From: a virus
Lineage: Duplodnaviria; Heunggongvirae; Uroviricota; Caudoviricetes
Direction: 5' to 3' (one strand)
Length of the DNA: 64,000 bases
IMG/VR virus record: IMGVR_UViG_3300008108_000037
Location: 68,002-132,001 of that record
Under the pieces are notes generated by a model. It was not told where the DNA came from. It made no database searches and worked only from the letters and a program-made list of their open reading frames with translations. Positions 1 to 55,017 of this stretch are shown piece by piece. Made by a program: the position numbers and the translations under genes. Positions within the stretch are counted from its first letter, which is position 1. Every line of letters starts with the position of its first letter.

Positions 1-647
1 TTTTTCATAGAGTTCCACATTTTTTCATTCCATTTTGTTGCATTTGTATGTAAATGGATTCGTTCTAAATTTGACCATTTTGACTTATCAAAGTTTCTTA
101 AAAAATCTCTAAATCCAACAGAAACAAATGGATCACCACTACCAGTTATATACAGCGTTTTTGTTGTTTTACCGTATTCATTTTCAATATCCTCAATCGT
201 TTTTTTAATCCTTTGTATTCCATCGGCACTTTCCACAATTAAATCAACCCTACAAGATGGACATTTAAGATTGCACGTTCTATCAAATGAAAATTGAATT
301 ATTGTTGGGGGTTCAGTGATCCCGTTATTAAATAAATCAATTCTTTCTTTTAATTTACTCGGCATCTCATTCTTATGATAAAGAGTATCAGTATTACCAA
401 TTTTTCCAAATGTTACTAATTGATGTAAAAACGGACACTGACCTTTATCACAATATTTATAAGAGCCATCTAAAACGGATTTTCTGATTTCTATAGCCTC
501 TTCGGATTCCCAGGAATTTTTTAATGTGGTGTTTTCTGGTAGATACTTTTTCAACCACGATGCACAACAAAGAAACCTATTTTTATGTTGTATTTCAAGT
601 GACACAAATGGAACAGCACACACATAATTTTTTAAATCGATACTCAT
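1..647 (-). CDS. radical SAM domain protein, partial (gene starts at 647-645 and runs past window start)
   Basis: Manual translation of minus strand from ATG (645-647) gives MSIDLKNYVCAVPF...FDRTCNLKCPSCRVD (CX3CX2C radical SAM cluster motif) then ...LYITGSGDPF; its start overlaps TAA stop of the upstream ORF (TAATG). Confidence 0.55.
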   Translation of the reverse strand, partial: MSIDLKNYVCAVPFVSLEIQHKNRFLCCASWLKKYLPENTTLKNSWESEEAIEIRKSVLDGSYKYCDKGQCPFLHQLVTFGKIGNTDTLYHKNEMPSKLKERIDLFNNGITEPPTIIQFSFDRTCNLKCPSCRVDLIVESADGIQRIKKTIEDIENEYGKTTKTLYITGSGDPFVSVGFRDFLRNFDKSKWSNLERIHLHTNATKWNEKMWNSMK

Positions 648-1321
648 TAAATTATATTTTTAATTTGTCTCTTGTTATTTAATATATCTATTAAAAATTC
701 TGAAAATTCATAGTGGGAGTCCTCGCACCAATGACCATCGTCTACCTCTCCATTGGTTTCTTGTTTTATGTTTCTATATTTTTTAGATAAAATAATCCCA
801 CATTTTGACAGGTCTGAACACCATGACCAATGAATTATTTTATTTTTAAGAGAAAAATTAATCAATTTCATCCAGTTACATATTTCTAGTACGTAAGGGA
901 AATTCGATCTATTAATTAGTAATTCTTGTATTGTTTTTTCCGAGATAAACTCAAATGTCTCAATTTTTTTATGTGCAAAAAATCCGTTTTCGTTACCTGG
1001 TTCAGGATTGAAATGTCCCCACTGATCTGACTTATTTACTAATCTAAACCTACTTTGATTAGTCCAACCAAAAATTAAAATATCCCCTTCCTTAATTTTA
1101 TCAACAACTTTACAAAACTCCTCTAAAATATGCGAGTTATCAACACCTCCCAGTCCTAAATTTATTAAATTTAAACCAAGTTTCTCAGCAATAATCTCAC
1201 CATAAACTTTCGGGACATATCCCTTATATTCAATGTATTTTTGTCTCCAGTGTATTGTTGATCTTTCCGGGGGGTAAAAATAATCGGTAAACGAATCCCC
1301 AAAGGTCCACAGATTATTCAT
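647..1321 (-). CDS. SGNH/GDSL-family hydrolase-like protein (paralog 1 of 7)
   Basis: N-terminal WTFGDSFTD block (GDS(x) catalytic Ser motif of SGNH hydrolases); paralogous to 3387-4022, 4528-5346, 13704-14489, 17095-17754, 21995-22915. Confidence 0.5.
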   Translation of the reverse strand: MNNLWTFGDSFTDYFYPPERSTIHWRQKYIEYKGYVPKVYGEIIAEKLGLNLINLGLGGVDNSHILEEFCKVVDKIKEGDILIFGWTNQSRFRLVNKSDQWGHFNPEPGNENGFFAHKKIETFEFISEKTIQELLINRSNFPYVLEICNWMKLINFSLKNKIIHWSWCSDLSKCGIILSKKYRNIKQETNGEVDDGHWCEDSHYEFSEFLIDILNNKRQIKNII

Positions 1322-1863
1322 CAGATCATTGTTTTATTTTTTTCTTGTCTTGTTGTTAATTTAATTGTTACATCGGATATCTCGATAGTATGATCTAGCT
1401 CTATAATAAAGTTTAAAATTTTAAACAAATCCTCGAATTTGAGTTTATTAAAATTCGCACCAAACATTTTATTATTCTCCATTGTACTTGGGTTAAAATT
1501 AATAACTCTAACTTTTTTATACGGATTGGCAATATTTAATGTCTGTGATAAATTTATTAGGTGTTTTTTATTTGAGACATATAGAGGACTAAAACATCCG
1601 TCCTCGTGTACTGCGGACGTTCCAAAATTTATTATTGTTTTTTCTAAATCCTTCCATTTTTCGAATAGTTCAAAAAAAACCAAGGATTGCTTCACATCTT
1701 TACTATATGCATGATTTAAAAATACATCGCATGAAGCTACCTGCGATAATATAGTGTCAATTTCTTCTCTTAGATCTATTTTAATTATATCGTGGGTCTT
1801 TCCCCACATAAGCGAAGCGTAATTGCCAAAACCGTCTGAAGTACCTGATATTGCTATTTTCAT
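1321..1863 (-). CDS. SDR-family NAD(P)-dependent oxidoreductase-like
   Basis: N-terminal IAISGTSDGFG glycine-rich Rossmann motif; downstream YVSNK (YxxxK) catalytic dyad; 180 aa. Confidence 0.4.
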   Translation of the reverse strand: MKIAISGTSDGFGNYASLMWGKTHDIIKIDLREEIDTILSQVASCDVFLNHAYSKDVKQSLVFFELFEKWKDLEKTIINFGTSAVHEDGCFSPLYVSNKKHLINLSQTLNIANPYKKVRVINFNPSTMENNKMFGANFNKLKFEDLFKILNFIIELDHTIEISDVTIKLTTRQEKNKTMI

Positions 1864-2363
1864 ATTAATTTCGAATTTCCTATTTGTAAATCATTCTTAT
1901 TTAAAAATAATATAAGGGACCATCTCTCACCTCCTAATATTTTTTTCACTTCATGGTCCCTATCACTTTTCATTGTATAAATTGTCCCAGTAACTTTAGG
2001 AAGTATTTCTAAAGGATTATATGCAATGAATTCTCCACCATCATAACTTTCATTTAAACAAACACCTATATTTAAAATTTGATCAGGATGCGTTGTCGAA
2101 TCATTATGTTTAGCAAATTCATTACCAGCCAAATAACGATGCAAATATATTTCTTGCATTTCATTTATTTTATTTTTTGAATATTCATCTAAAAGAAATT
2201 CTTTCAGTCGATCAAATATCCACTGGGTGTTACTATTTCTAAGTACAACATGATAATAGTAATTAAAATCATTTCTTTTAAATAATGATGATGAGTGTTT
2301 AGGTTTAAAAGTATTTGATAGATTAATTATCTTATTACATTCTTCTATTGAAAATGAAATCAT
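1860..2363 (-). CDS. 2OG-Fe(II) oxygenase superfamily protein
   Basis: HxD (AKHNDS) ... H (DHEVKK) ... RxS (GERWSLILF) triad arrangement typical of P4H/PhyH-like dioxygenases. Confidence 0.45.
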   Translation of the reverse strand: MISFSIEECNKIINLSNTFKPKHSSSLFKRNDFNYYYHVVLRNSNTQWIFDRLKEFLLDEYSKNKINEMQEIYLHRYLAGNEFAKHNDSTTHPDQILNIGVCLNESYDGGEFIAYNPLEILPKVTGTIYTMKSDRDHEVKKILGGERWSLILFLNKNDLQIGNSKLI

Positions 2364-2851
2364 ATTAATTTTTTTTTATTCATTATGTCGGTTCTTAATC
2401 GTTCAGAACTATTCTCGTCAAATAGATCTTCATAATATTGAATTGGTATTTTTAATTTATCAGACAATTCCTGTAAATCTTGACCCATTTTTATTAAAAG
2501 TTCTCTTGATTTATCAATCGTTTCTACTGGTGGTGCGACATATTCATATGGGGTTCCGGAATGATACCCATTTCGAATATTGTGATAAAGGTAAGAGTAT
2601 GATTCGAGATGATTTTTAAAATTTTTTCGATTTAATAATATCACATCATCAAATTTTTTTGATAATTCAAAATTATTCTCGTGCTGATGTATTATTGTTT
2701 TAACAACAACGTTATTCATATCATCGTCATATAAAAAACGATCACTACCGTCAAACGGCTCAAAGATTGCTCTAAATTCTCTTTCTTTCGAAATTTTATG
2801 TAATAAAGATGTAGATCCCGTTCTGGGTAATGATATTATTAAAATTCTCAT
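2360..2851 (-). CDS. sulfotransferase-domain protein
   Basis: N-terminal ISLPRTGSTSL resembles the PAPS 5'-phosphosulfate-binding loop (P-K/R-T/S-G-S/T-T) of sulfotransferases; 163 aa; same array as APS kinase. Confidence 0.45.
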   Translation of the reverse strand: MRILIISLPRTGSTSLLHKISKEREFRAIFEPFDGSDRFLYDDDMNNVVVKTIIHQHENNFELSKKFDDVILLNRKNFKNHLESYSYLYHNIRNGYHSGTPYEYVAPPVETIDKSRELLIKMGQDLQELSDKLKIPIQYYEDLFDENSSERLRTDIMNKKKLI

Positions 2852-3390
2852 ATTAATCTTTTATTGTCATATAATTTAAGATATTTAAAATCTGTATTAG
2901 TCATCCAAACATTTAAAGCGCATCTAACCCCAGTCGTGACAGGCATAACCCCATGGTATATTTTACTTCCATCAAAAGATATGGACTGTCCTATTTTTAA
3001 CAAATGTTTTTGTGAATCGTTTATGTTTTTTGATTTTGATAATATAAATCTCCCATCTTCAAAATTTTCGCTTAAAACTATTACTGTAGTTAGCTGTGAG
3101 GTTGAATCCAAGTGTAAATCTAATCTTCTACTATCGTAATATTTGGTAATACTTATATTAAAATCTTCAATTTTAAAATCTTTAAAATTAAACCACAATT
3201 TAAATTTTTCTTCTTCAAAATTTTTTATGAACCTGTCAAATATCAATTTATTAAATCCTAAATCGGAAATTCTTTTACAATCCCAAACCTCGGATGGATT
3301 ATAATTAAATTTTTTACCCACCCTATCTGCATATTCAATAATTGAATTACATTCCTCACCTCCAAAGAAATTGTTTATCGAATAGTTCAT
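2848..3390 (-). CDS. 2OG-Fe(II) oxygenase (P4H-like)
   Basis: LHLDST (HxD), IYHGV (second His), GVRCALNVW (Arg for 2OG C5 carboxylate). Confidence 0.45.
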   Translation of the reverse strand: MNYSINNFFGGEECNSIIEYADRVGKKFNYNPSEVWDCKRISDLGFNKLIFDRFIKNFEEEKFKLWFNFKDFKIEDFNISITKYYDSRRLDLHLDSTSQLTTVIVLSENFEDGRFILSKSKNINDSQKHLLKIGQSISFDGSKIYHGVMPVTTGVRCALNVWMTNTDFKYLKLYDNKRLI

Positions 3391-4022
3391 AATATTTTTT
3401 TATCCTTTATATCCTCCACAAATTCTACAACGGGTTCTTCTATTTCTAATAATCCATGAATTATTTTATACATTTCGTAACATCCTTTAGGTCCTGGATG
3501 AAAATCTATTTTTTCTCCAACTCCTTCTTCCCAATTGGAAGTTACCTTAATAAGTGTTACAAAGTCAGAGGTAGGAATGGCGAATTGTTCACTCCATGTA
3601 ATAAACACTGGATTATATATTTTTAACCATTTTTGGAGATTTTTTAAAAATTTAATGTCATTTTCCCTAACACCGTTTATCCAATTATTACCTTCAGTGA
3701 GTCTTAAATCATCTAATTTTTCGGCAAATTTACTATCCTTATAATATTGTGGCGATCTGTACTGGTTATTTAAATATAGTTCTTTTTTATCCCCATAATA
3801 CCTTCCGGGTAACCTTCCAGGGTCAGTAAATACAATAACAATTCTATCTCCCTCCATATATTCATCTAAATTACCTAATTGAAAAATTATTGAGGAGTTA
3901 TCAGCCCCAAGTTTACCATGTTTATAAACTTCGTAGTGTTTTGATAAATAATATCTCCAATGGTATTTTGGTATGTGCCAATCAACAAAAGAATCCCCAA
4001 AGCAAAATAATCTCGGTTTCAT
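3387..4022 (-). CDS. SGNH/GDSL-family hydrolase-like protein
   Basis: N-terminal LFCFGDSFVDW GDS motif; paralog family. Confidence 0.5.
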   Translation of the reverse strand: MKPRLFCFGDSFVDWHIPKYHWRYYLSKHYEVYKHGKLGADNSSIIFQLGNLDEYMEGDRIVIVFTDPGRLPGRYYGDKKELYLNNQYRSPQYYKDSKFAEKLDDLRLTEGNNWINGVRENDIKFLKNLQKWLKIYNPVFITWSEQFAIPTSDFVTLIKVTSNWEEGVGEKIDFHPGPKGCYEMYKIIHGLLEIEEPVVEFVEDIKDKKIL

Positions 4023-4525
4023 TAAATTAAAGACGTTCTTTTTTTATTAAACATTATAACTAAAACCCTCCTTTGTCCAGATTCTAACTGTGTAACTTGG
4101 TGAACCTGGTTGTTTCCCTCGAAATTAACATACTGTCCAATTTCTGTAAAATTTACATCCTCTCCATCAATTATTAATCTTCCTCCCACAAATTCATTCG
4201 ATAACAAAATTAACGTGGTCTGTAAAACAAAATACTTATCTCTGTGAGGTTTTGTTAAGTTTCCTTTATCATATATTAATTCATAGAAAAAATCTATTTC
4301 ATATTCAGGTTTGCCAAATTTTTCAACAATAAATGAATTAAACTTGCTATCGTGCATCCCATAATATTTCATTGATGTCAGGATTAGTGCATCCTCGCCT
4401 TTGATAACTATATAGGGATGCTTATATTTTAAATTTTCATATTCTAAAGGATTCATTCCCCCATTTTCCGAAAGTGCTTGATTGATGTAATCGATCTCTT
4501 CGCTATTTAAACAACCAATATCCAT
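4022..4525 (-). CDS. 2OG-Fe(II) oxygenase-like protein
   Basis: KPHRDK (HxD), QVHQV (His), GQRRVLVIMF (Arg) in P4H-like spacing. Confidence 0.4.
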   Translation of the reverse strand: MDIGCLNSEEIDYINQALSENGGMNPLEYENLKYKHPYIVIKGEDALILTSMKYYGMHDSKFNSFIVEKFGKPEYEIDFFYELIYDKGNLTKPHRDKYFVLQTTLILLSNEFVGGRLIIDGEDVNFTEIGQYVNFEGNNQVHQVTQLESGQRRVLVIMFNKKRTSLI

Positions 4526-4527
4526 AG

Positions 4528-5346
4528 TTATATCAAGATGTTAATTTTTCCTTTAGTCTTTTCCGATATGATTTTATTTTCTCCAATAAAACGGTATATT
4601 TCATCGGAAATTAGTTCATATCCAAGCTTATTTGGATGTACACCAACAAGGTTAATTGGGTTTTTAAAATTCTCCCAAATACTTTTTTTATCAAAACTGG
4701 TTAAAAAGTCCCTAAATGTTTCTTTGCGGAATCCCCAATAGTGCCTAGTGTCGATCAAATCGGTTTTATCAATTTCCCCTATAATATTTTTTGGCAACAT
4801 CATATCGAATCCATCGCAAAACAAATATCTAATACCCAAATTTTTAAACATATATTGCAAATACAATAAATAACCCTGGTTGACTATGTTATAATAATTT
4901 TCGTTGTATAAATTAACCGTGTACCATTCCTTATAGTCGATTTTTAATTTATTATAAATTTTATTTTCCCCATTTGAGCTCAGTATATGATCGTATATGT
5001 ATTTTTTGTCTAGATGTCTTTTACTCCATGAATGCCATTCATTATCTGGCGGAAAAAATGGCAATTCTTCCCTTAAGGGGGAAGACCACATTATAATCAC
5101 TAGATCATTCTCTTTAATCCTACCAGTATCTATACATTTACAAACGCAATTAAATATGAATCGATTATCTGATCCACCTACTCCGTAATTTTGGAGGTCT
5201 ATTTTTAATTTTTCTGCTAATTGTTTTGGCCAAGAATATTTGCTCCGAATTTTTGTTTTTTCCTCTAAACTACTTACCGCATTCTCTTCTGCTAAATCTC
5301 CACCAACACCCTCCGTCCAGCTATCCCCGAATGTATATAATTTCAT
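4528..5346 (-). CDS. SGNH/GDSL-family hydrolase-like protein
   Basis: N-terminal LYTFGDSWTEGVGG GDSL block; 272 aa. Confidence 0.5.
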   Translation of the reverse strand: MKLYTFGDSWTEGVGGDLAEENAVSSLEEKTKIRSKYSWPKQLAEKLKIDLQNYGVGGSDNRFIFNCVCKCIDTGRIKENDLVIIMWSSPLREELPFFPPDNEWHSWSKRHLDKKYIYDHILSSNGENKIYNKLKIDYKEWYTVNLYNENYYNIVNQGYLLYLQYMFKNLGIRYLFCDGFDMMLPKNIIGEIDKTDLIDTRHYWGFRKETFRDFLTSFDKKSIWENFKNPINLVGVHPNKLGYELISDEIYRFIGENKIISEKTKGKINILI

Positions 5347-5945
5347 AACAGGTTTTTTTTAAACATCTTATTGATTTCTCTTTCTCTTACCCAAATAACT
5401 AAAATATATTTTACACCATCCACAATTGGTAAACCAGCATGTAATGATTTTTTATTTAGTGTTCTATCCGGGTTTAAATTATTCCACACCAGCAAATCCC
5501 CCTGATTTCCTTTTATTTTAATTTTTTTCAAAGGAAATTCAGTTTCTCCCCCGATATAATCATCATTTAAATAAAATATTCCGGTTATTAATCGATCACC
5601 GCTTTCCCCATTAGGTATATTCTTTGGGTCTCCGTAGCAGTCATAATGTGGCTTGTATTCTCCCCCAATTCCATATCTTATAAAGGATACCGGGGTTTCT
5701 TGCTGATTAATGGTTGTTTTTGTTTTTTCTGAGAATATTTTACGAACTTTTTTTAGTAATTCGGATTCATTTCCATATACAGCAATTTCAGCTTTTCTAT
5801 ATTTTATATCTGATTCCACATCCCCATTAATTGTTCTCGCAGTTTTAAATTCGTTAAATTCTTTTATTAATTTTTCACAATCCATTTTATCTAATACTTC
5901 TGCATGTAATTGATATAAAAGGTTATTATTTTCAAAGTATCTCAT
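5343..5945 (-). CDS. prolyl 4-hydroxylase-like 2OG-Fe(II) oxygenase (start moved to second Met giving ATGA overlap at 5942-5945)
   Basis: KPHYDCYGD (HxD) ... SLHAGLPIVDGVKYILVIW matches P4Hc core; the ORF-track start at 6008 overlaps the upstream gene by 67 nt, whereas Met at 5945 gives a 4-nt ATGA overlap. Confidence 0.6.
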   Translation of the reverse strand: MRYFENNNLLYQLHAEVLDKMDCEKLIKEFNEFKTARTINGDVESDIKYRKAEIAVYGNESELLKKVRKIFSEKTKTTINQQETPVSFIRYGIGGEYKPHYDCYGDPKNIPNGESGDRLITGIFYLNDDYIGGETEFPLKKIKIKGNQGDLLVWNNLNPDRTLNKKSLHAGLPIVDGVKYILVIWVREREINKMFKKNLL

Positions 5946-6433
5946 ATAATAGTTTTTAATTTTCCCCAGTTCTTTATGTCCCCGTATCTTATATAAAATA
6001 ACGCACAATATCTAACCCCTCTTTTTACTTTTTTCACTTCGTGATATTCGCTTGATTTATAATGATATATTTCACCCATCGGTTTCAAGTATGGTTTATC
6101 GTTTAAATAAAACTCCCCACCTTCATAATCATCATTTAATAATATATTAATATTATAAATAAAATCTCTACTGAGTGAATTAGTGGCGGACCCCGAATCT
6201 ATATGTTTTTGAATTAGGTCACCCTCAATGTATTTTAATATACCTACATTAATTGTACTAATGTCCAAATTTAAATACTCACTACAATATTGAATAATTA
6301 AATTTTTAATTTCACCGTCTTCGACTTCAAATAAAGTGGAATAGTATGAACCACCAGTCTTCACCCTTTTCCATAAATTTTTTGATTCTGATAACTCAAT
6401 CAAATACCTACAATGACTATTTGAGATTTTCAT
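5942..6433 (-). CDS. 2OG-Fe(II) oxygenase-like protein
   Basis: QKHIDSG (HxD), EYHEVKK (His), GVRYCALFYI (Arg). Confidence 0.45.
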   Translation of the reverse strand: MKISNSHCRYLIELSESKNLWKRVKTGGSYYSTLFEVEDGEIKNLIIQYCSEYLNLDISTINVGILKYIEGDLIQKHIDSGSATNSLSRDFIYNINILLNDDYEGGEFYLNDKPYLKPMGEIYHYKSSEYHEVKKVKRGVRYCALFYIRYGDIKNWGKLKTII

Positions 6434-6436
6434 TAT

Positions 6437-8448: not shown

Positions 8449-8612
8449 AAATATCCACAGAATTTAAGAATGTTTTAACTTAATCAGTTCTACAAGTTTT
8501 GACAATATAGTGAAGGTTTTCTGTTTTTTATCCTCGCTGATCGATGAAGCTTGTCTTAATTTAAGATCAACAGTATTAATTGACTTATATTTTGTTGGTT
8601 TTATCATGATCT

Positions 8613-10487: not shown

Positions 10488-10527
10488 ACTTAATATTTTC
10501 TTTTATATCCCAATATAACAAAATGCA

Positions 10528-11077: not shown

Positions 11078-11083
11078 TAATAT

Positions 11084-12022: not shown

Positions 12023-12123
12023 AGCGTTAGTTCTTTTAATATGTATTCTGATAATATAATATGGAATATCTCACCATAATGAAGATCTTCAACTTTTCCT
12101 TGGTGTCTCCAAAGACCCAAAGA

Positions 12124-24467: not shown

Positions 24468-24468
24468 G

Positions 24469-25122: not shown

Positions 25123-26501
25123 ATTATTTTTTTATAAAATTCCTCAAATTCTGGAAAAACCTTCAAAAAATTGGTGCCTCTTCTTTTATCGTGATTGTCT
25201 ACAAAAATTCGGAAATCCCTCCTGTTCTGTAATAAGGTCTCTTCAGGTTCTTCCGTTACCATCCAATCATGAATTCTATTTAACTTATTGATTTCGATGT
25301 CGGTATATCCAAATCCATCAAGACCAACTCTTATTTGTTCGTAGAAGTCCATTAGCTGAGCTTGCTCTTTTACTACTGCAGACCATTCCTTATCTAATAT
25401 TTTCACTGTCTGGTGTGGAGGCCACCTTAAATAGGACGAGTCTAACATAATAGAGGAGCCATAGTATCTGTGAGGGTTGTGATATTCTTCCTTAAGCTTT
25501 ACCACATTTTCTATTAACTTTTCATAATTAGGAACGGAAAGTGCGTTATATGTGGACATTATTATTACGGTCAGAGGCTCAATTTCTTTCAATAGAAAAT
25601 TAACTCTATCCCACCATTGGTTGAAGACCAAACCATGTCTAATGTATTCAGCTTGTTCTCCCCAGGTATCTGCACTGGTAAATAGTATCACCTCGTTTAC
25701 CCTGTTCTCGTCTATCATTCTTTTTAATTTTTCTACCATTAGATTAAAAAGCTTATCTGGTGCTCCTAAATTCGTATTGAGAGAAAAATTTAAATTTCTG
25801 TTTGGGTTTTTTTCATCCAAGATATAATCAAAAACCTTAAAAGTGTCTTTAGACAGAAGAGGTTCCCCTCCCGTTATTCTAAAAGTATGAAGATCTCTGT
25901 ATAAATCAGGCCACCATTTCCAGAAAGCCTCAACGTATGGGTTCTCCTGATTATGCGGTCTTGGGATCATGTTCAGATCCTTCAAATATTCTAAATTGTT
26001 AAATCTAAAGCTGGTAGGATATGGTCCATGCTGCTCTATTTCTTGAACCCATTGGGAAGAGAACGACGGTCCACAATACGAGCATTTAAAATTACAGTGA
26101 TTACTAAAAGCTACCTCAACATACTTAGGATTGTAATTTTCTTTCCACCCTAAATCTTTTATTTCATTAAAATATGGGGCAGACCAGGGTTCAGAAGATT
26201 TATAAATTCTATCGGAAAATGCATTTGATGTATCTTCTATATTCCAGCAATAATCGCATTCGTCTGGTCTTTTACCGTGAAGCATTTTTCTTCTCTGCTG
26301 CTTTTTATAAACTGTATTATGTAGAGCAGATGGGTTTTTTTCTAACTCTGATAGTGGGATATGATGCGTGCCTGGATGGTGACACGAATGTGTTTGTCCC
26401 ATTTGTAAATGAAGTGTTACTTGAGTCCATTTTGCTAAACAAAAGCCACATCCAACATCGTTTAATTTATTTCTAGTTTTGTCGAAAAATTCGTTTAGCA
26501 T
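25119..26501 (-). CDS. radical SAM enzyme with N-terminal Cys/His-rich extension (long subfamily)
   Basis: GCGFCLAKWTQVTLHLQMGQTHSCHHPGTHHIPL, ECDYCWNIED, then FSNHCNFKCSYC (CX3CX2C), FRITGGEPLL; paralog of 22908-24467. Confidence 0.6.
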   Translation of the reverse strand: MLNEFFDKTRNKLNDVGCGFCLAKWTQVTLHLQMGQTHSCHHPGTHHIPLSELEKNPSALHNTVYKKQQRRKMLHGKRPDECDYCWNIEDTSNAFSDRIYKSSEPWSAPYFNEIKDLGWKENYNPKYVEVAFSNHCNFKCSYCGPSFSSQWVQEIEQHGPYPTSFRFNNLEYLKDLNMIPRPHNQENPYVEAFWKWWPDLYRDLHTFRITGGEPLLSKDTFKVFDYILDEKNPNRNLNFSLNTNLGAPDKLFNLMVEKLKRMIDENRVNEVILFTSADTWGEQAEYIRHGLVFNQWWDRVNFLLKEIEPLTVIIMSTYNALSVPNYEKLIENVVKLKEEYHNPHRYYGSSIMLDSSYLRWPPHQTVKILDKEWSAVVKEQAQLMDFYEQIRVGLDGFGYTDIEINKLNRIHDWMVTEEPEETLLQNRRDFRIFVDNHDKRRGTNFLKVFPEFEEFYKKII

Positions 26502-27808
26502 TATAGTAATCTTTTTTTAATTATCGGATTGAGACTCTCCAAACAAATTAGATCGTTTGGTAAATTTCTGTGTTTTGAATTATTTGCAATCATTAAATCG
26601 TGTCTTTCTTTATGATTTACCCATGGATTATCTCCAAATAATCTTATATGTTCATTTATACTCGATATAAATATCTTCGATTCAAAGTCGTCGTTATCTA
26701 AAATAAACTCTGGAAGATGATACGAATTAACAAACGGAACAATGTAATCATAATTTCTCCTGAGAATTGATTCAAAGCTATTTTTTATATTCGCTCCGTC
26801 AAGTAATATACATCCATTCTTGACGTAGAATATTATATTCTTTTTACTATCCTTTAAAATATTTAAAATTATTTGGGATTCTAAATCTTCCGATGATGTG
26901 TCCAAGAAAACATATTCATATTCAAAATGATCAGTAATCATGCTTCTGAGCGTCTCCTTGCTGTTTTTTTCGATCACAAAATATCTAAGATTTTTAAATT
27001 TATTTTTATAAAAGTTTAGCGTAGTTTCCAAAACCCCTCCATAATTTTCTTCAGCTCCATCTACCGAAATAAAAGCACAGACCTCAGTAGAGATGCACGG
27101 TATGTCTTCATATGGTGGATAATGATTGTCTCTAAAATTTACTAGCTGTTTATAAAGAGAATTTGATATGGTTGAAGGAAATTCGCAGTTTGATAACGCA
27201 AGGCCAAAAACAGCTCCCTCTCCTCTTAAATCATCATCAGCCTCCTTCGCTACCTTTTTTCTAAGCATCGAATAAAATTCATAGGTTTCAAACAATTTGT
27301 CTATCTTTTCTTCGTCAATACCCTCGAAATTAAAATACATTAAATCTTCCCATGGAGTAACTGTATTTCTAAATTCAACATTATTTTTTATCAGCTCATC
27401 TTTAAATTTTCCAAGTTTTGGATTCGTTTCTAATAAGGCTTTGAAATGTATGCTTGTAAATCTGTTGTATGAAAATCCTGGATTAAAATTCTTAGAAATA
27501 ATATCATTTATGAATTCTTCAGAATTTATCAATATCAGATCAGAATCCATATAAAGTATTTTATTATACCCCCTTTTTCTTACCTGGTTAATGAATATAA
27601 ATTTGCTATGAAAATCAAAGGTTGTGGAAAAATCGTGCTTTATTGTTTCAACCCCTTCCATGTCTTTGAATTCTGACACATTATCAGTGTAAACAAATAT
27701 TTTAAAAGATCCACTATCAGTGAAATTCTTTATTAAAAATTTGCAGCAGGTATAATAATACTCAGTATTAGAAGCAATTGTCGCTATTGCTATTTTATTT
27801 TCCATCAT
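26501..27808 (-). CDS. putative GT-A fold glycosyltransferase (DxD)
   Basis: N-terminal IAIATIASNTEYY and ILYMDSDLILIN (DxD) resemble GT8/GT77-type nucleotide-diphospho-sugar transferases; weak. Confidence 0.3.
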   Translation of the reverse strand: MMENKIAIATIASNTEYYYTCCKFLIKNFTDSGSFKIFVYTDNVSEFKDMEGVETIKHDFSTTFDFHSKFIFINQVRKRGYNKILYMDSDLILINSEEFINDIISKNFNPGFSYNRFTSIHFKALLETNPKLGKFKDELIKNNVEFRNTVTPWEDLMYFNFEGIDEEKIDKLFETYEFYSMLRKKVAKEADDDLRGEGAVFGLALSNCEFPSTISNSLYKQLVNFRDNHYPPYEDIPCISTEVCAFISVDGAEENYGGVLETTLNFYKNKFKNLRYFVIEKNSKETLRSMITDHFEYEYVFLDTSSEDLESQIILNILKDSKKNIIFYVKNGCILLDGANIKNSFESILRRNYDYIVPFVNSYHLPEFILDNDDFESKIFISSINEHIRLFGDNPWVNHKERHDLMIANNSKHRNLPNDLICLESLNPIIKKRLL

Positions 27809-29251
27809 TTATGCTTTGCAATTAATCAGAAGGGTATTGTTGAATACCTCTTTAGTAGAGACTAACTCGTACTTCATACTGTTGAATCCCTCACTTTTAT
27901 AGTTTATACATTTCCTTTGCATTTCAGTTACGAACCTTTTTTCATTTCTTGCTGTTGTTTCCCCCTTTGCCCACTTATTATTTACTAGCCCTTCGTCAAT
28001 GTGTGGTAAACACTCGAAAGATCCTTCTCTCCTATAAGGAATTGGCATGTCGCTAACCTCTATGGAATCTTCAACGATTTCTAAATTATAAGCCTTAGCT
28101 TTAATTCCACTCATTACGTCTTCGATTTCTCCATTTTCTATCAAATCAAATTTAAAATGCAGAACTGGCTTATGTTTTAAATCGTGAAATTTAGTAACAT
28201 CTCCTGGAATTTTTACTGCCTTATCAAAAATCATTAATTCTGCAATTTCACCTCTAAAAAATAATGGATTTTCCTCGTCGCCGTTATATCCCATGATAGA
28301 TTTTTCTTTATCCCTATACTGAAATAAATCATTATTTATTATTGTAGATTTATTTTCTTTGATTCCTTTTTCGTTAGATCTTGCTAGTTCGTCATTTAGA
28401 AAAAAATTAAAGTGACCACTTGAAGAATCATAAGATGTTGTTACCCAGGACCAAACACCATCATCCCTCTTGATCCAATTATAGATCTGGGATGATGAAA
28501 AATCTGAAATCATGCTAGTAACAGCTCTGGAGTTGTTAAAAGATATGCAGTACGGACTATATGATTGCTTTCGGAAAACCGGAAATTCTATGAATTTTTT
28601 GTCATCCGTTCCTATTAGCCAATCTTTATATTTTTCAGGTTGTTGTTCTGCTTTAAATAGAGCACATACCGTATGATCTGATCCCAGTATTTTGTTTATG
28701 GATTTTATCCATGGGATTTCAACATATGAGTTGTTTCCATTAAATCTTGAAAATTTTCTTTTTTTATATTTTTTATAAATCCTTTTTTCAACATATCCTT
28801 CGAAATAACATCGATAAAAAAGGTCGTCATCTTCCATACCCCAATCCCAATAATCATTAGAATATCCGTTAGTTTTTATAACTTGATCCTTAGTAAATAG
28901 AATTACCCCACCGAAGTATTGTTCATAATTTAGTTTGAAATCGTACTTCGAAAGTTTTGTTGCTATATGAATTGGATATTTTTCCGGATATGAATAGTCA
29001 CAATCATCGGAGAATGGCACCATATCAACGTCATGCCATGCAATATAATCACATCCATCATCGAAGGCAAACTTGGCTGCTATGTTTTTCATTAGTCCCC
29101 TATTAAACAGCTTATTATCCACCTGATGGGCCACATAAAATTTATGATCTATTCCACGATTTTTTAGATACTCCCCCAGGTCTTCAGTTAGCTTCTGTAA
29201 GTGATCGAATCTATTTCTGTAAGGTATGCAAATTCCCAGTTTATGACTCAT
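27809..29251 (-). CDS. GT7-family (beta-1,4-galactosyltransferase-like) glycosyltransferase fused to C-terminal LamG-like domain
   Basis: FNRGLMKNIAA...DYIAWHDVDMVP...YFGGVILFTKDQVIKTNGYSNDYWDWGMEDDDLFYRC is the GT7 core (FNRG, DVD, WGWGxEDDD); C-terminal FFRGEIAELMIFDKAV LamG signature. Confidence 0.55.
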   Translation of the reverse strand: MSHKLGICIPYRNRFDHLQKLTEDLGEYLKNRGIDHKFYVAHQVDNKLFNRGLMKNIAAKFAFDDGCDYIAWHDVDMVPFSDDCDYSYPEKYPIHIATKLSKYDFKLNYEQYFGGVILFTKDQVIKTNGYSNDYWDWGMEDDDLFYRCYFEGYVEKRIYKKYKKRKFSRFNGNNSYVEIPWIKSINKILGSDHTVCALFKAEQQPEKYKDWLIGTDDKKFIEFPVFRKQSYSPYCISFNNSRAVTSMISDFSSSQIYNWIKRDDGVWSWVTTSYDSSSGHFNFFLNDELARSNEKGIKENKSTIINNDLFQYRDKEKSIMGYNGDEENPLFFRGEIAELMIFDKAVKIPGDVTKFHDLKHKPVLHFKFDLIENGEIEDVMSGIKAKAYNLEIVEDSIEVSDMPIPYRREGSFECLPHIDEGLVNNKWAKGETTARNEKRFVTEMQRKCINYKSEGFNSMKYELVSTKEVFNNTLLINCKA

Positions 29252-30654
29252 ATTCCTACGTTAATTTCTGTTATATTTCCCTCTCTTTTTCTTCCGTGAT
29301 CTGTGTACTTTAGATCCGATAATCCGTCTCCAAATAAAAGATTGCTGTTATTTCTTACCTCGTTATAGAATCTTAATTGATTCCATCTAGTTGCTTTATC
29401 CTTCCATCTATTTTCGAAGAAACCATTTTGCTCATGTTTCATGGATTTAAAGATAGAATCCCTTCTGATCGGAAGGTCTATTTTTTTAAACCAAGGACCT
29501 TCCATATCAACAATTTCACATTTGAAAATACTAGCATCGTTTCCGTTTCCTGAAAGATCTACTAACTTATAATTTTCTATGTGCTCTGCATCATAGTGAC
29601 AAAGAATGGATCCGGATTTTTTATATTCCGAAAAGTCGTTTGTTGCTGAAACAGATTTAACTTCATTTTCACTTAAAATTCCTTCTAAGACTACCAAAGA
29701 ATCTATGTACCCCTTGAAAAAATTAGGATCTCCATTTCTTTTAGGATTTCCTGCACCGATAAAGAAATACTTTTCGTCTGAATAATCCTTTAATTCTCCC
29801 TCCCAATTTGTTTTTCCTATATGTTCTCCGTCTTGATAGAAATTTATTTCTCTCAACGATTGATTTAATGTGATACAAATATTTGTTTGATAATTAGTAG
29901 TTATTTCTGTGTTTATGTATGATGCTTTTTCTTCGGAGTTGAATGTAACAAAATTGTATCTCTTGAATGAATTATAGGAAATTGCAGTGTCATACCCCGG
30001 AATGCTAAAAACCGTATAAACATCAAGATCCTTCGTTGAATCATAAACCAATTCATCGGGGAAAAAAGATGCAAATAATGTTAGATCCTTGTCTATGCAA
30101 AAATTATTTTTTGCTCTCACAAAAGAATCCTGTCCGTTAAATTTTAGTGATTTATGGAAATTTCTTGTTTTTTTGATGTAATAAGGCTCTGTGCCTATGC
30201 TCTTGTTTTTGCATCTTAGGAAAAGGTCATCATCTTCAAATCCCCATCCCCAATACTTATTTGAATATCCGTTTATCTTTTTGAAATCTTTAATCGGAAA
30301 CATAGTGACCCCGCCGAAGTATTCGTCGAATGGCTTTGATCTTTCCCCCGAGTCCTCGTCCTCTATTAGAGTTGCAAGATGAACTGGATGATCACAGTAA
30401 GAATAATCAACATCCAATGGCAGCAAATCAACATCATGAAAAACCACATAATCACATCTTAAGTTTCTGGCACACTTAAATCCTATATTTAATAGCATCC
30501 CTCGATTAAATTGCTTACCGTCGTCTTGATTTACGATGATAATTTCATGTGGTATTTTTTCCTCGTTTAGATATTTTACTATCTCCTTGAGAAAAAAATA
30601 AAGATGTTCCCCTCTGTGGCGGAAAGGAACTATGACTCCTAGTTTTTTATCCAT
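29248..30654 (-). CDS. GT7-family (beta4GalT-like) glycosyltransferase fused to C-terminal LamG-like domain
   Basis: FNRGMLLNIGF...DYVVFHDVDLLP...YFGGVTMFPIKDFKKINGYSNKYWGWGFEDDDLFLRC; C-terminal FFKGYIDSLVVLEGILSENEV LamG signature; paralog of 27809-29251. Confidence 0.55.
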   Translation of the reverse strand: MDKKLGVIVPFRHRGEHLYFFLKEIVKYLNEEKIPHEIIIVNQDDGKQFNRGMLLNIGFKCARNLRCDYVVFHDVDLLPLDVDYSYCDHPVHLATLIEDEDSGERSKPFDEYFGGVTMFPIKDFKKINGYSNKYWGWGFEDDDLFLRCKNKSIGTEPYYIKKTRNFHKSLKFNGQDSFVRAKNNFCIDKDLTLFASFFPDELVYDSTKDLDVYTVFSIPGYDTAISYNSFKRYNFVTFNSEEKASYINTEITTNYQTNICITLNQSLREINFYQDGEHIGKTNWEGELKDYSDEKYFFIGAGNPKRNGDPNFFKGYIDSLVVLEGILSENEVKSVSATNDFSEYKKSGSILCHYDAEHIENYKLVDLSGNGNDASIFKCEIVDMEGPWFKKIDLPIRRDSIFKSMKHEQNGFFENRWKDKATRWNQLRFYNEVRNNSNLLFGDGLSDLKYTDHGRKREGNITEINVGI

Positions 30655-30856
30655 CTATTGTAGGGTCCTTTGGTTTTATCGATTTATGAAATTCCGTCAG
30701 ATAGTACTGAATCCTGTTGCTCCAATCATCCTTATCAATATCTTCTATCCAAGCTGAAATGTCATCGAGGGAATCTGAGATTCTTTCGAGTGCTTTTACT
30801 TTTCTAAGTTCCAATTCTAAAAATTGATCCTCGTTTGATTTTTTAGCTGTTGCCAT
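30647..30856 (-). CDS. small hypothetical protein
   Basis: 69-aa acidic ORF in the array; no motif. Confidence 0.2.
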   Translation of the reverse strand: MATAKKSNEDQFLELELRKVKALERISDSLDDISAWIEDIDKDDWSNRIQYYLTEFHKSIKPKDPTIDG

Positions 30857-30857
30857 A

Positions 30858-31706
30858 TTAGATTGATATTATTTTTTTAATTAAAGAGCTCCATTCTTTA
30901 TAATCTTCAAAATAGACGCATCCATATTCAAACATAAAATCAGAATTACTGAGGTCTATCCTAGATTTATTTCTCTTTATAGCATCATACATCACTTTAT
31001 ATTCGTCAGAATATGAATAATCCTGATTAATATCTGCGACATTTTTGATCCTTTCTAAGCATGTTGAATCCCATTTAAAATGGTGGACCTGGACGGAATA
31101 TTTTTCTACTGGTGCAATTAGTGGATGGCTCCATCCTTGCCACCTCCAGGTAGTCTGCCCATTTATTTTTGCATAATGCTGCCCAGAAGTTATTTCAATT
31201 CCTCCTTTAACCAAGCAGATTTTGTTAGGGCATGCGTTACTCATGGGGTATCTGAAAAATCCGGCTATGGGAAACTGGTCAAAGATTGGTACATCTTCAA
31301 GTATCTTACAGAACTCCCCGTTGTTTCCTATCCTGTCTAGAAATCCTCCCCTAATTAATTCCCACCCCTGACTTTCACAATCACTAACCATATAATTAGG
31401 TGACTCAGGATAAACGTGAAATTCGTCTATATCAGCAATCATGTACCAGTTGCTTCTTGATTTTTTTATTTGTTCATTATATAGATCAGTAACCCTGTTC
31501 CAATCAAAGATCCTATCATAAACAGTTTTAACTATTTTTACTTTTTCCTTACCTCGGATAGATCTTCTTACCTCTCTCTTTAAATCTGGATGCAGATCAG
31601 ATTCATAGACCACAAAATTTATTTCATCTACCATGTTATAATAATGATTGATGAAGTGTGGTATTAGAGGAACCCCATGACCTATTATAGATATTAATTT
31701 TATCAA
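30858..31706 (-). CDS. hypothetical protein, possible glycosyltransferase (DxD)
   Basis: WYMIADIDEF DxD-like block; otherwise unassigned. Confidence 0.25.
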   Translation of the reverse strand: MIKLISIIGHGVPLIPHFINHYYNMVDEINFVVYESDLHPDLKREVRRSIRGKEKVKIVKTVYDRIFDWNRVTDLYNEQIKKSRSNWYMIADIDEFHVYPESPNYMVSDCESQGWELIRGGFLDRIGNNGEFCKILEDVPIFDQFPIAGFFRYPMSNACPNKICLVKGGIEITSGQHYAKINGQTTWRWQGWSHPLIAPVEKYSVQVHHFKWDSTCLERIKNVADINQDYSYSDEYKVMYDAIKRNKSRIDLSNSDFMFEYGCVYFEDYKEWSSLIKKIISI

Positions 31707-32431
31707 ATCTCTTTTCTTTTAAATAGGGTTATTCCTGATGACGAAGGTTTATCTTTTAATGATCCGTAATTAAATAGACTGAATTTTTCCCATTCAGAGT
31801 CGTCAAAATCTTTTACAAATTGGGATGGACCAGAGAAATCGTGGAAATCTTTTTTCTGATCTTCAGATACTATGAAGCTGGAAGAAAATTTAGGATCTGT
31901 GTCATGGATTGCTATGATGCCCTGATCGTTCAAAATGTTTTTGTATAACTTAAAATCCTTGTCTACTCCTTCATATGAATGATCTCCATCTATAAAAAGA
32001 AAGTCTATTTTAATATCTTGTAAAACGAAAAAATCATAATATGCTCTTTCTGAAGTTTCTTTAACAAATCTTGGATGGAATGTTTTTCTGTAAAAACTTT
32101 CTTCATCACACATATTAGATTGTCCCCCTACACCATTACACGGATCTACCACATAAGTTGCTCCGATATTCCCCCAATTATAATCGGGATTTCCCGAGAA
32201 AGTTCCTATTGAATGCAGATCTATTCGGGCTTGTGTTAGAATTCGCGGAATATATCCGCCTCCACTTCCTATGCAAACACAATTTTTAAATCTGAAAAAT
32301 TGCACTAGAGAATAGATCAGAAGTCCATCCCCCATATCCAGATCAGTCGCTCCGTGGGAGTATCTGAACGGGACAGGATTGTCCAAATCGTTGGTTATTC
32401 TTTGTTTTATGTAATCAGTATTCAGAATCAT
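31703..32431 (-). CDS. class I SAM-dependent methyltransferase (TylF/CmcI, Methyltransf_24-like)
   Basis: CVCIGSGGGY and FLFIDGDHSYEGVDKDFKLY...GIIAIHD match the macrocin-O-MTase-type family; first gene of the minus-strand array. Confidence 0.5.
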   Translation of the reverse strand: MILNTDYIKQRITNDLDNPVPFRYSHGATDLDMGDGLLIYSLVQFFRFKNCVCIGSGGGYIPRILTQARIDLHSIGTFSGNPDYNWGNIGATYVVDPCNGVGGQSNMCDEESFYRKTFHPRFVKETSERAYYDFFVLQDIKIDFLFIDGDHSYEGVDKDFKLYKNILNDQGIIAIHDTDPKFSSSFIVSEDQKKDFHDFSGPSQFVKDFDDSEWEKFSLFNYGSLKDKPSSSGITLFKRKEI

Positions 32432-55009: not shown

Positions 55010-55017
55010 CACAGAAA

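Follow-up and report, generated by a model that had tools for sequence, protein, structure and literature searches.

Chlorovirus and mimivirus encode their own glycosylation machinery, and the fibrils of mimivirus combine collagen-like proteins with hydroxylase and glycosyltransferase activities. Tail fibres decide the host choice of phages, and the post-translational decoration of fibres is almost unexplored beyond a few mycobacteriophages. In mycobacteriophages, glycosylation of the capsid and tail tube has been described (Freeman et al. 2023, cited in PMC12619734), and large T4-like cyanomyoviruses (P-SSM2, S-SCSM1 and S-SCSM2R) carry clusters for 'LPS / cell-wall synthesis and modification' (LPS, lipopolysaccharide), proposed to modify the host surface (PMC12801897). 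Here we analysed a stretch of 64,000 nucleotides (the window; positions 68,002 to 132,001 of the IMG/VR virus record IMGVR_UViG_3300008108_000037) that carries a minus-strand array of tailoring genes at positions 3-32431. We give about an even chance to the reading, suggested by enzyme families and gene order, that this array is a glycosylation and tailoring set acting on virion fibres in the host cytoplasm, above all on the Ser/Thr-rich collagen-like fibre encoded at 46154-50857.

Like mycobacteriophage virion glycosylation, as represented in the citing paper, the array has soluble glycosyltransferases (GTs) and sugar-nucleotide enzymes beside structural genes and would decorate the virion in the cytoplasm. 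The mycobacteriophages use 1-3 GTs by that account, whereas the system here is known as genes and comprises ~42 of them, with GT7-LamG enzymes, a radical S-adenosylmethionine (rSAM) array, sulfation, SET, prolyl 4-hydroxylase (P4H) and SGNH genes. The cyanomyovirus clusters are similar in their dozen or more GTs, sugar-nucleotide enzymes, several 2-oxoglutarate (2OG) oxygenases and occasional rSAM gene, with a guessed function (PMC12801897), but they belong to another phage lineage without homology to the core described below, whereas the array here is fibre-linked and lacks export genes. Virus-encoded virion glycosylation and large-phage glycan clusters are known kinds of system; the present one was found neither in cultured phages (no full core among 50,697 GenBank phage records) nor in the accessible literature, which contained no description of this gene set, in line with the initial annotation, which had not recognised any described phage module. 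It is set apart by an N-terminal-twitch (N-twitch) rSAM array, by eukaryote-like GT7-LamG proteins with a methyltransferase, and by a position downstream of Ser/Thr collagen-like fibres, and this phage is further distinguished by added P4H/2OG, SGNH, SET, Hint and sulfation genes.

The array consisted of 39 successive minus-strand open reading frames (ORFs), 38 complete and one rSAM gene cut by the window edge, and coding sequence made up 98.5% of the stretch. Genes overlapped at 28 of the 38 junctions, 18 of which were 1- or 4-nt stop/start overlaps (ATGA/TAATG type); gaps of 0-10 nt were found at six junctions, and only four gaps exceeded 30 nt (164, 40, 162 and 101 nt). These figures bear out the earlier description of about 40 almost gapless, coupled minus-strand genes. 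All 14 junction coordinates given with it were correct, that at 5942 requiring the ATG start at 5945, the one chosen by public gene callers, and not the upstream TTG. The GC skew was negative in 1-32000 and turned positive at ~32000, in agreement with the divergent strand switch (32431/32540) at the end of the array; to the right of 32540, genes lie chiefly on the plus strand. On public contigs with identical genes, the array goes on for ~2.1 kb beyond the left window edge, where the remainder of the rSAM gene and two small genes close it before convergent genes begin (L163/L164), so that the whole unit spans ~34.5 kb and ~42 genes.

The part of the array nearest the strand switch contains the following features, listed together with the fifth rSAM gene at the left window edge.
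31703-32431, minus strand: class I SAM methyltransferase (Methyltransf_24; Pfam E 2e-11, above cutoff), first gene of the array, core
30858-31706, minus strand: GT-A-like glycosyltransferase, core (Glyco_tranf_2_4 E 7.5e-5, below cutoff; DIDEF motif read by eye)
30647-30856, minus strand: acidic conserved protein of 69 amino acids (aa), core, called on conservation
29248-30654, minus strand: GT7-LamG paralog 1, core (Glyco_transf_7N/7C and Laminin_G_3)
27809-29251, minus strand: GT7-LamG paralog 2, core (Glyco_transf_7N/7C and Laminin_G_3)
26501-27808, minus strand: 435-aa protein with a GT-A-type DSD motif read from the sequence only
19510-26501, minus strand: radical SAM array, namely four N-terminal-twitch rSAM paralogs, a free LamG protein and an SGNH/DUF6071 protein, as follows
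25119-26501, minus strand: complete rSAM gene (NF033640, 331 bits)
24469-25122, minus strand: free LamG domain protein
22908-24467, minus strand: complete rSAM gene (NF033640, 313 bits)
21995-22915, minus strand: SGNH/DUF6071 protein (DUF6071 E 1.7e-12, above cutoff)
20661-21998, minus strand: complete rSAM gene (NF033640, 307 bits)
19510-20679, minus strand: complete rSAM gene (NF033640, 315 bits)
3-647, minus strand: fifth N-twitch rSAM, N-terminal 215 aa, cut by the edge (NF033640 E 1.5e-14, 54 bits, below cutoff)

All window proteins were mapped onto 80 rSAM-centred viral loci. The order methyltransferase, GT-A-like protein, 69-aa protein, two GT7-LamG proteins and rSAM array (~19.5-32.4 kb) formed a conserved core, whose order and strand were retained in ~36-38 of the 80 loci; metagenomic neighbours with shared synteny, which the initial annotation had proposed to seek, therefore exist. 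The Methyltransf_24 gene stood at the equivalent position in 35-36 loci, the GT-A-like gene was kept in 37-38 (41-57% identity), and the 69-aa protein was present in 29-36 (43-67% identity), nearly always between the GT-A and GT7 genes. Pfam and PHROG searches gave no match to the 69-aa protein, and neither Pfam nor NCBIfam matched the 435-aa protein, weak relatives of which lay upstream of the methyltransferase in some loci. An alignment-based scan with a methyltransferase profile detected relatives in at least 416 viral stretches, and with hundreds of viral contigs the core is abundant in environmental viromes. Its homologs occurred in viral contigs and not in bacterial genomes, the exceptions being a few contigs of metagenome-assembled genomes (MAGs) that carry the whole core, at least one of which is probably a misbinned phage; the remaining matches in cellular genomes were rSAM-only arrays of Bdellovibrionota.

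The methyltransferase had been called correctly from the sequence, as had the GT7-LamG proteins, which comprise two fusions in addition to the free LamG protein. The GT7 domains scored 58-72 bits against cutoffs of 23-27 (Pfam E 1e-16 to 1e-20), and their best PDB sequence matches were beta4GalT7 (3lw6, E 1e-30) and beta4GalT1 (range E 1e-30 to 1e-27). A DVD metal-binding motif was readable, and the two paralogs are 30% identical. Domains above the Pfam cutoffs and homology to solved beta4GalTs place both in the GT7/beta4GalT-like family, from which UDP-Gal or UDP-GalNAc as donor and a beta-1,4 linkage are predicted at the family level only. Animal beta4GalT7, to which the catalytic domains are homologous, acts on Xyl-O-Ser at proteoglycan Ser-Gly sites. 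The layout of a catalytic domain followed by a C-terminal lectin-like module is shared with the polypeptide GalNAc-transferases (ppGalNAc-Ts, GT27), which glycosylate Ser/Thr-rich repeats, but the lectin module here is LamG and not ricin-B, and the setting is a cytoplasmic one in a prokaryotic virus, with no signal anchor. A tblastn search of the 50,697 GenBank phage records, cyanophages included, gave no match to GT7-LamG.

The five radical SAM enzymes reported earlier all matched NCBIfam NF033640 (N_Twi_rSAM), the four complete ones above its cutoff of 170 bits; the full-length fifth is 356 aa on public contigs. Alignments revealed invariant cysteines at C28, C47, C89 and C92, followed by CxxxCxxC at C144/C148/C151, and Pfam placed SPASM at residues 10-90, ahead of Radical_SAM. 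The four complete enzymes thus have the hallmark of NF033640, a four-Cys twitch domain N-terminal to the CxxxCxxC core, which is an unusual order. This family has so far been a sequence definition only, and the accessible literature yielded neither a characterised member nor a paper on it. In PDB sequence searches, the rSAM at 22908-24467 had no usable relative and a second paralog gave only a marginal match to SkfB. A predicted rSAM structure (predicted local distance difference test, pLDDT, 80) matched only generic rSAM cores in a Foldseek search of the PDB (template-modelling score, TM, 0.25-0.35), among them the peptide maturases SuiB, CteB, anSME and EpeE and the sugar/nucleoside enzymes BlsE, DesII, AprD4 and viperin, so the model cannot separate peptide from sugar substrates.

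Among GenBank phages, the rSAM paralogs matched only Ralstonia jumbo phage RsoM2USA and Vibrio jumbo phages. RsoM2USA gp202 shares 53% identity with the rSAM at 22908-24467 and is followed by two DUF6071-like genes, so the pair of rSAM and DUF6071 recurs in that phage; weaker relatives form arrays in ~250-kb Vibrio phages. A scan of IMG/VR with one rSAM returned more than 595 stretches on contigs of up to 424 kb, the protein family comprises at least 8000 clusters at 90% identity, and related loci hold 1-8 copies per 20 kb. A T4-like marine viral genome with 12 rSAM genes was earlier left unexplained (Nishimura 2017, PMC5332604). Tandem N-twitch rSAM arrays in jumbo phages and Bdellovibrionota appear to be undescribed.

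In cellular genomes, the N-twitch rSAM family was found almost only in predatory Bdellovibrionota (L142, L100, L109 and L094). A 1.89-Mb Bdellovibrionales chromosome (L142, OZ220490.1) carries 7-8 tightly packed tandem paralogs at ~8500-20230, with no ORF of at least 40 aa between consecutive copies and two ORFs (56 and 65 aa) just upstream of the array. No family besides the rSAM paralogs recurred in more than 4 of 17 Bdellovibrionota loci; the scattered neighbours included GT2, a PMT_2-type membrane glycosyltransferase, a carbamoyltransferase and an ABC ATPase. The cultured Vibrio phage K566 (L167, OZ196521.1, ~255 kb) has 3-4 distant N-twitch-type rSAM genes at 5729-11218, annotated merely as 'radical SAM domain-containing', and K566 and RsoM2USA (gp200-202) are tractable cultured systems for the function of these enzymes.

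The proposed substrate and the sugar genes around it lie on the other strand.
46154-50857, plus strand: tail fibre of 1567 aa, proposed substrate (PHROG tail-fibre families, E down to 1e-110)
37207-46036, plus strand: second sugar-gene block (Pfam, NCBIfam, motifs), ending 117 nt upstream of the fibre gene
40517-42700, plus strand: GT2-rSAM fusion of 727 aa, with N-terminal GT2 and a C-terminal MoaA/SPASM-like rSAM of another subfamily than the N-twitch enzymes
54004-54942, plus strand: DUF6734 protein (precomputed Pfam on identical public genes)
54943-55635, plus strand: Gly_transf_sug-like (GT32-like) glycosyltransferase (weak match; precomputed Pfam on identical public genes)

The fibre contains 840 residues of a (G-T/S-S)n collagen-like repeat and ends in a Peptidase_S74 chaperone domain. 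It consists of 25.6% Ser and 12.4% Thr (together 38%), 22.3% Gly and 2.4% Pro, and is the only strongly Ser/Thr- and Gly-rich protein in the window; its GC content (0.45-0.49 against a background of 0.31) is due to the Gly, Ser and Thr codons only. Residues ~730-860 form Cys-rich globular inserts between collagen-like tracts (CECPHSY..., CDGCCDGY...). The Bacillus anthracis protein BclA is a collagen-like filament whose repeats are O-glycosylated on Thr, and beta-galactosylated Thr stabilises the cuticle collagen of Riftia. The phage repeat differs from BclA-type collagen in its G-T/S-S sequence with almost no proline. The second sugar block encodes Methyltransf_24, GT-A-like, GT8, a DegT-like fragment, the GT2-rSAM fusion, Gfo/Idh/MocA, ATP-grasp and PAP2-like proteins, and glf lies downstream of the fibre, also on the plus strand. 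The covalent fusion of GT2 and rSAM fits the idea that local rSAM enzymes act on sugars.

Relatives of the array showed a consistent link to fibre genes. A fibre-like gene was found in 47 of the 80 rSAM-centred loci and was upstream and co-oriented in all 47. A second set, centred on the methyltransferase, comprised 46 distinct loci for which 8 kb or more of upstream sequence was available (10 kb viewed); of these, 32 had an upstream fibre ORF with collagen-like sequence and/or an S74 motif, co-oriented in 31 of the 32, and an upstream ORF of at least 900 aa was present in 39. GT genes adjacent to and co-oriented with virion genes, the arrangement by which phage virion glycosylation is recognised, characterise 31/46 loci of this set and all 47 fibre-bearing loci of the rSAM set. 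Long collagen-like repeats of up to 1308 residues occurred in 16 loci, with T (52%) or S (39%) at position X and S (80%) at position Y, and the repeat of the window fibre is of the same G-T/S-S type. The order fibre, two small genes, DUF6734 and methyltransferase was found in ~20 loci of related phages. Core and fibre point in opposite directions in the window, as they do in L168-L172, its closest relatives, and sugar genes still flank the fibre. The Ser/Thr-rich collagen-like fibre had been favoured as substrate from the outset; synteny in related phages supports this choice, while its modification is still a proposal.

The rest of the array, from the end of the core to the left window edge, contains the following features.
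17751-19532, minus strand: DUF7796-like protein, internally duplicated (DUF7796 E 1.3e-5, below cutoff)
17095-17754, minus strand: SGNH-like protein (motifs and paralogy)
16367-17098, minus strand: third DUF7796-like copy, weakly related
14452-16383, minus strand: cupin/NTP-transferase/APH-kinase (aminoglycoside phosphotransferase-type) fusion (Pfam and NCBIfam; NTP-transferase above the Pfam cutoff, APH below cutoff)
13704-14489, minus strand: SGNH-like protein
13076-13732, minus strand: shikimate-dehydrogenase-N-like protein (Shikimate_dh_N above the Pfam cutoff)
12124-13083, minus strand: 319-aa protein without a family match
11675-12022, minus strand: haloacid dehalogenase (HAD)-like phosphatase (motif and weak match)
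11084-11512, minus strand: adenosine 5'-phosphosulfate (APS) kinase homolog (PF01583 E 3.9e-11, 43.7 bits against a cutoff of 21.1)
10706-11077, minus strand: TagD-sized CTP_transf_like nucleotidyltransferase (NTase) of 123 aa (weak PDB match to nicotinamide mononucleotide adenylyltransferase; CTP_transf_like counterpart in L250)
10528-10737, minus strand: DUF2061 protein (Pfam E 7e-23)
8613-10487, minus strand: 624-aa Hint protein (Pfam AXH, Intein_splicing, PT-HINT and Vint over residues 463-621)
7541-8448, minus strand: two tandem SET-domain paralogs (Pfam E 2e-7 and 7.7e-8; 31.8 and 33.1 bits against a cutoff of 22.4)
647-7656, minus strand: lineage-specific tailoring tail of 2OG, SGNH-like, Stf0-like and SDR-like (short-chain dehydrogenase/reductase) genes, as follows
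6943-7656, 5942-6433, 5343-6008 (P4H), 4022-4525, 2848-3390 and 1860-2363, minus strand: 2OG oxygenases with an intact HxD...H...R/K triad
6437-6946, minus strand: degenerate 2OG paralog without HxD
4528-5346, 3387-4022 and 647-1321, minus strand: SGNH-like proteins, that at 3387-4022 called on motifs alone
2360-2851, minus strand: Stf0-like probable sulfotransferase
1321-1863, minus strand: SDR-like protein, weak (E 0.11)

The six intact triads and one degenerate copy agree with the six to seven 2OG-Fe(II) paralogs counted before. The protein at 5343-6008 is a collagen-type P4H (Pfam E 2e-12) with residues H-Y-D, H and K; it matched the B. anthracis P4H structures 3itq/5hv0 at E 3e-17 and, further down, P4H enzymes of PBCV-1, Chlamydomonas and human. 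It is thus a close homolog of the B. anthracis, PBCV-1 and Chlamydomonas enzymes in a genome that also has a collagen-like fibre. The other five intact paralogs gave only weak or sub-cutoff family matches, and all six remaining copies are much more divergent. Marine and freshwater myoviruses are well known for carrying several small 2OG oxygenases, so far without an explanation. The two SET proteins (protein-lysine methyltransferase fold), rightly called from the sequence, are 34% identical to each other, their substrate being predicted as a class only. Seven SGNH/GDSL paralogs had been claimed, of which six were found and the seventh was not. The six have a readable block I G[DC]S and block V (D/H)xxH, and five are linked by mutual BLAST; three had SGNH matches in Pfam, all below cutoff, whereas DUF6071 of 21995-22915 was above it. 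Their catalytic Ser lies within ~10-15 residues of the N-terminus, which leaves no room for a signal peptide.

For sulfation, the initial annotation had credited the sulfotransferase with its own genes for supplying 3'-phosphoadenosine 5'-phosphosulfate (PAPS). The APS kinase half of this claim held, with readable P-loop, DGD and NI(E/R)R-type motifs, but no ORF matched an ATP sulfurylase family (Sat or CysDN) and the adjacent gene is the CTP_transf_like NTase, so APS would have to come from the host. A PDB sequence search with the Stf0-like protein (2360-2851) gave nothing usable. The order HAD, APS kinase, NTase and DUF2061 (10528-12022) is repeated beside a glycosyltransferase in other phage-like contigs, and this four-gene cassette may make an activated phospho- or sulfo-donor; partial copies stand beside rSAM arrays. 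In the JGI/ENA metagenome contigs L250-L253 (~1-4216), it adjoins an 830-aa GT2_5/GT4/pyruvyl-transferase fusion, with PhoH nearby. We also considered DUF2061-APS kinase fusions as support for a PAPS role and discarded the idea, as the top 120 DUF2061 homologs were all standalone and the support comes from neighbourhood only. The HAD motif is present as reported, with a weak family match, and the SDR reductase call is a weak one.

The nucleotide-sugar activation fusion was recovered with its cupin, NTP transferase and APH-type kinase, as was the shikimate-dehydrogenase-like protein. The 319-aa protein had no match in Pfam, NCBIfam or PDB searches, and the gene order of 12124-16383 is common to one close relative, L008. 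The halves of the DUF7796-like protein are 29% identical (E 9e-18), and its first half matched the third copy at E 0.003; a search of PDB sequences with this protein (17751-19532) gave no usable match. The Hint-domain call stands on Pfam Hint/intein families above cutoff: the domain is C-terminal, begins at Cys ~472 and ends in ...AHN with 6 residues remaining after it. It resembles bacterial-intein-like or hedgehog-type autoprocessing domains rather than a splicing intein, and it could cleave off or transfer the N-terminal 460 aa. The N-terminal ~460-470 aa had no PDB relative, and a first impression of an ATP-grasp fold there was withdrawn after that search.

Several findings point to cytoplasmic chemistry on a soluble acceptor. 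A 19-residue hydropathy scan detected no membrane segment in the minus-strand array proteins, including DUF2061 ('predicted membrane protein' in Pfam), which fell below threshold. Pfam searches of the array proteins detected no Wzx, Wzy, ABC exporter or polyprenyl-phosphate glycosyltransferase/priming transferase, and the SGNH proteins have no signal peptide. SET and collagen-type P4H are protein-modifying families, which points to a protein acceptor, and together with the fibre synteny they make cytoplasmic O-glycosylation and tailoring of fibres the best-supported model.

The families of the enzymes, their solubility and their conserved place beside fibre genes are shown directly, whereas the following scheme infers which molecule is the acceptor, which sugars are used, in what sequence the steps run and what the rSAM enzymes do. 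Sugars would be activated by the anomeric-kinase/nucleotidyltransferase fusion (14452-16383), with glf, Gfo/Idh/MocA and DegT-like proteins from the other strand, the substrates being putative. Soluble GT-A enzymes would then attach sugars to Ser/Thr hydroxyls of the repeat and extend them, the candidate players being the two GT7-LamG, the GT2_4-like, GT8 and GT32-like enzymes and DUF6734 proteins; the combined catalytic and lectin layout might work like that of polypeptide GalNAc-transferases, the dense glycosylators of mucins. The glycan, the polypeptide or both could be tailored by methyltransferases, by SGNH acyl-transfer or esterase activity, by the Stf0-like enzyme with APS kinase, by P4H-type and other 2OG oxygenases, by SET lysine methyltransferases and by the N-twitch rSAM array, for which neighbouring families offer precedents of epimerisation, oxidation/dehydration and cross-linking. 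Decoration would take place before or during fibre assembly. The core may be the ancestral machine of a large jumbo-phage clade, with the distal 2OG, SGNH, SET, Hint and sulfation genes as lineage-specific add-ons that diversify the decoration. The phage could gain a more stable triple helix in its proline-poor collagen and a variable fibre surface that either withstands proteases and immunity or tunes receptor choice.

A bolder and doubtful extension is that a large uncultivated clade of jumbo phages matures its proline-poor fibres to a proteoglycan-like structure through dense O-glycosylation of the Ser/Thr repeats by eukaryote-type GT7 enzymes with lectin domains, sulfation, acylation and methylation, and new rSAM chemistry on the fibre polypeptide or its glycans, with rSAM epimerisation or inter-chain cross-links perhaps replacing hydroxyproline in stabilising the triple helix. 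If so, the rSAM family of Bdellovibrionota and phages would mark a shared 'predator surface-fibre' maturation chemistry. A true fibre link would mean that giant phages build extracellular-matrix-like, possibly sulfated glycoprotein fibres, with a bearing on host range, Pro-free collagen stabilisation, phage engineering and the reading of 'auxiliary metabolic' glycan genes in viromes. It gives the rSAM family and the GT7-LamG proteins of prokaryotic viruses a concrete candidate substrate; if it is wrong, the array is still the largest phage-related tailoring gene set in the collections searched.

Several points weigh against the fibre as substrate. A distance of 14 kb separates the core of the window from the fibre gene, the two being on different strands, and 14 of the 46 methyltransferase-centred loci have no recognisable upstream fibre by crude criteria. 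The compared loci come from related phages and are not independent samples, and the synteny could reflect an inherited late-gene backbone or accessory genes piling up near fibre genes. With 2.4% Pro, of which only 4 residues stand in the Y position, and 1.1% Lys, the fibre suits seven 2OG/P4H-like and two SET enzymes poorly; their targets may be other proteins, and proline hydroxylation cannot be the main modification. The generic structural neighbours of the rSAM model (TM 0.25-0.35) point to no particular substrate class, and Bdellovibrionota carry the rSAM family in chromosomal arrays without a fibre gene nearby.

The scarcity of Pro and Lys targets would also be expected if there were no single pathway, that is, if a fibre-associated core had been joined through plasticity to unrelated auxiliary genes in a hyperplastic region, whose assorted host and phage targets could include ribosomal proteins, further host proteins and metabolites, and if the tight packing were mere phage genome economy. 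Wide conservation is confined to 19.5-32.4 kb. The genes of 12-19.5 kb keep their order in a single relative, the closest one (L008), and for most of 0.6-10.5 kb (2OG/SGNH/SET/Hint) the 80 loci offer few homologs or none, so that the megacluster of the initial annotation does not hold as one evolutionary unit. The alternating rSAM/SGNH/2OG units it described were not borne out either, as there is no regular repeat, the order is irregular and paralogs across the array are old (21-36% identity). On these sequence comparisons, the array is an irregular mosaic of ancient paralogs and not an iterative module, and stop/start overlaps are common throughout phage genomes. Nevertheless, distant phages (L176, L194, L208, L215 and L238) have DUF7796-like, SGNH, sulfotransferase-like and NTase/DUF2061 genes within the core or directly behind it, which indicates that some of the tail, if not all, moves together with the core, and the minus strand of 1-17 kb has no strand switch and no recognisable terminator. 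We regard the absence of a common pathway as unlikely.

Promoter and terminator scans were treated as uninformative on one single transcript: sigma-70 promoter counts equalled the shuffle expectation, and terminator-like sites were at expectation in 1-17 kb and numbered 15 against 7.0 ± 2.4 expected in 17-33 kb, where the majority lay within ORFs or on the plus strand. Searching k-mers for a common upstream motif yielded nothing convincing, and TATATAAAT-like late-promoter strings stood ahead of the fibre gene and 53186 and not ahead of the array.

A remodelling of the host envelope (LPS O-antigen, capsule or S-layer glycan) in the course of the long jumbo-phage infection for superinfection exclusion, grazer avoidance or release is rather unlikely. 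The cyanophages S-SCSM2R, S-SCSM1 and P-SSM2, with 13-22 glycan genes, have been read in this way by their authors (PMC12801897), polysaccharide loci typically contain glf, GT8, GT2 and sugar-nucleotide genes, and the Bdellovibrionota rSAM neighbours include the GT2, PMT_2-type, carbamoyltransferase and ABC ATPase genes mentioned above. The array, however, encodes no step embedded in the membrane (no priming transferase, flippase, polymerase, exporter or transmembrane segment was found), GT7-LamG has no homolog among the GenBank phage records, cyanophages included, the core is consistently downstream of fibre genes, and SET and P4H act on proteins. A separate idea, a captured host capsule/LPS island, was rejected, since membrane proteins, Wzx, Wzy, an ABC exporter, a priming transferase and a chain-length regulator all went undetected in the array, its GC content (0.28-0.36) is that of the remaining window and the core homologs are viral; the preference expressed in the initial annotation for phage-encoded tailoring over a captured locus was well founded.

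We consider it very unlikely that the array makes a RiPP-like (ribosomally synthesised and post-translationally modified peptide) or small-molecule product, for example an aminoglycoside- or nucleoside-like sugar compound. The closest structures to the rSAM model are peptide maturases and sugar/nucleoside rSAMs, but these matches are weak (TM at most 0.35); shikimate-dehydrogenase-like, DegT-like, Gfo/Idh/MocA and ATP-grasp genes occur in such clusters too, but Pfam, NCBIfam and a reading of small ORFs showed no small Cys/Ser/Thr-rich precursor-like ORF, RiPP recognition element, leader protease or exporter, and the only conserved small ORF of the core (69 aa) is acidic, with a helical character read from its sequence, and not core-peptide-like. 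DNA hypermodification by GTs, 2OG oxygenases and rSAMs against restriction is highly improbable, for although hyperglycosylated phage DNA and TET-type 2OG oxygenases are on record (Pyle 2024, as cited in PMC12619734) and several methyltransferases are present, the window lacks a dNMP hydroxymethylase, a TET/JBP-type oxygenase, a GT-B DNA glucosyltransferase and an aGPT-Pplase-type enzyme, its 2OG genes are P4H-type (2OG-FeII_Oxy_3), its GTs belong to GT-A glycan/protein families, and the module is linked to the fibre and not to a replication module.

The window comes from a freshwater jumbo phage that is itself uncultivated and lacks close relatives in culture. A phage genome, as assumed from the start, is evident from 21 tRNAs, a tmRNA, the Peptidase_S74 fibre, endolysin-type genes and jumbo-phage homologs.
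36809-37193, plus strand: tmRNA (Rfam RF00023, 79.5 bits), with a tag peptide ending in ...ADYAIAA
38855-61151, plus strand: 21 tRNA genes in several clusters with protein genes in between
34762-36758, plus strand: prohibitin/SPFH-family protein and GMP-reductase/IMPDH-like dehydrogenase

A tmRNA together with many interspersed tRNAs is typical of huge phages. Genes for MoxR/VWA, a UvsX-like recombinase of the RecA family and RNase H follow beyond the right window edge. Identical proteins were found on many freshwater metagenome contigs, some exceeding 200 kb and one of 219 kb, and homologs on IMG/VR jumbo-phage contigs and in RsoM2USA (344 kb); a megablast of 25 kb against the 50,697 GenBank phage records gave no match. 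Freshwater metagenomes in which the phage occurs include ENA ERZ272479xx and JGI 3300008262. An origin from nucleocytoplasmic large DNA viruses or another giant eukaryotic virus, considered since SET, P4H and GT7 co-occur, was rejected because of the bacterial-type coupling, tmRNA, S74 fibre, endolysins, UvsX/RecA and jumbo-phage homology. Moraphages, jumbo phages of freshwater Bacteroidota that measure 200-307 kb and share four core GT orthogroups (PMC12619734), are a possible candidate for the home lineage. A 248-kb contig binned into a Flavobacteriaceae MAG (L088, CBFHJJ010000001.1) carries the entire core from methyltransferase to rSAM at 3457-11560 with 42-65% identity; it is probably a misbinned jumbo-phage contig and as such a weak hint on the host group.

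The array and the plus-strand genes diverge from an intergenic region of 108 bp. This region contains a perfect 8+8 palindrome, TTGTCTAT GAA ATAGACAA, at 32475-32493, which is operator-like and occurs once in the window, its exact form not being kept in L168-L172, and a second palindrome, ATGAAA A TTTCAT, at 32455-32467. Among the convergent genes just beyond the left window edge (L163, 15494-17134) are a TROVE/Ro60-like protein (weak Pfam match) and a thioredoxin. The GMP-reductase/IMPDH-like dehydrogenase is 43% identical to one on a 484-kb uncultured phage.

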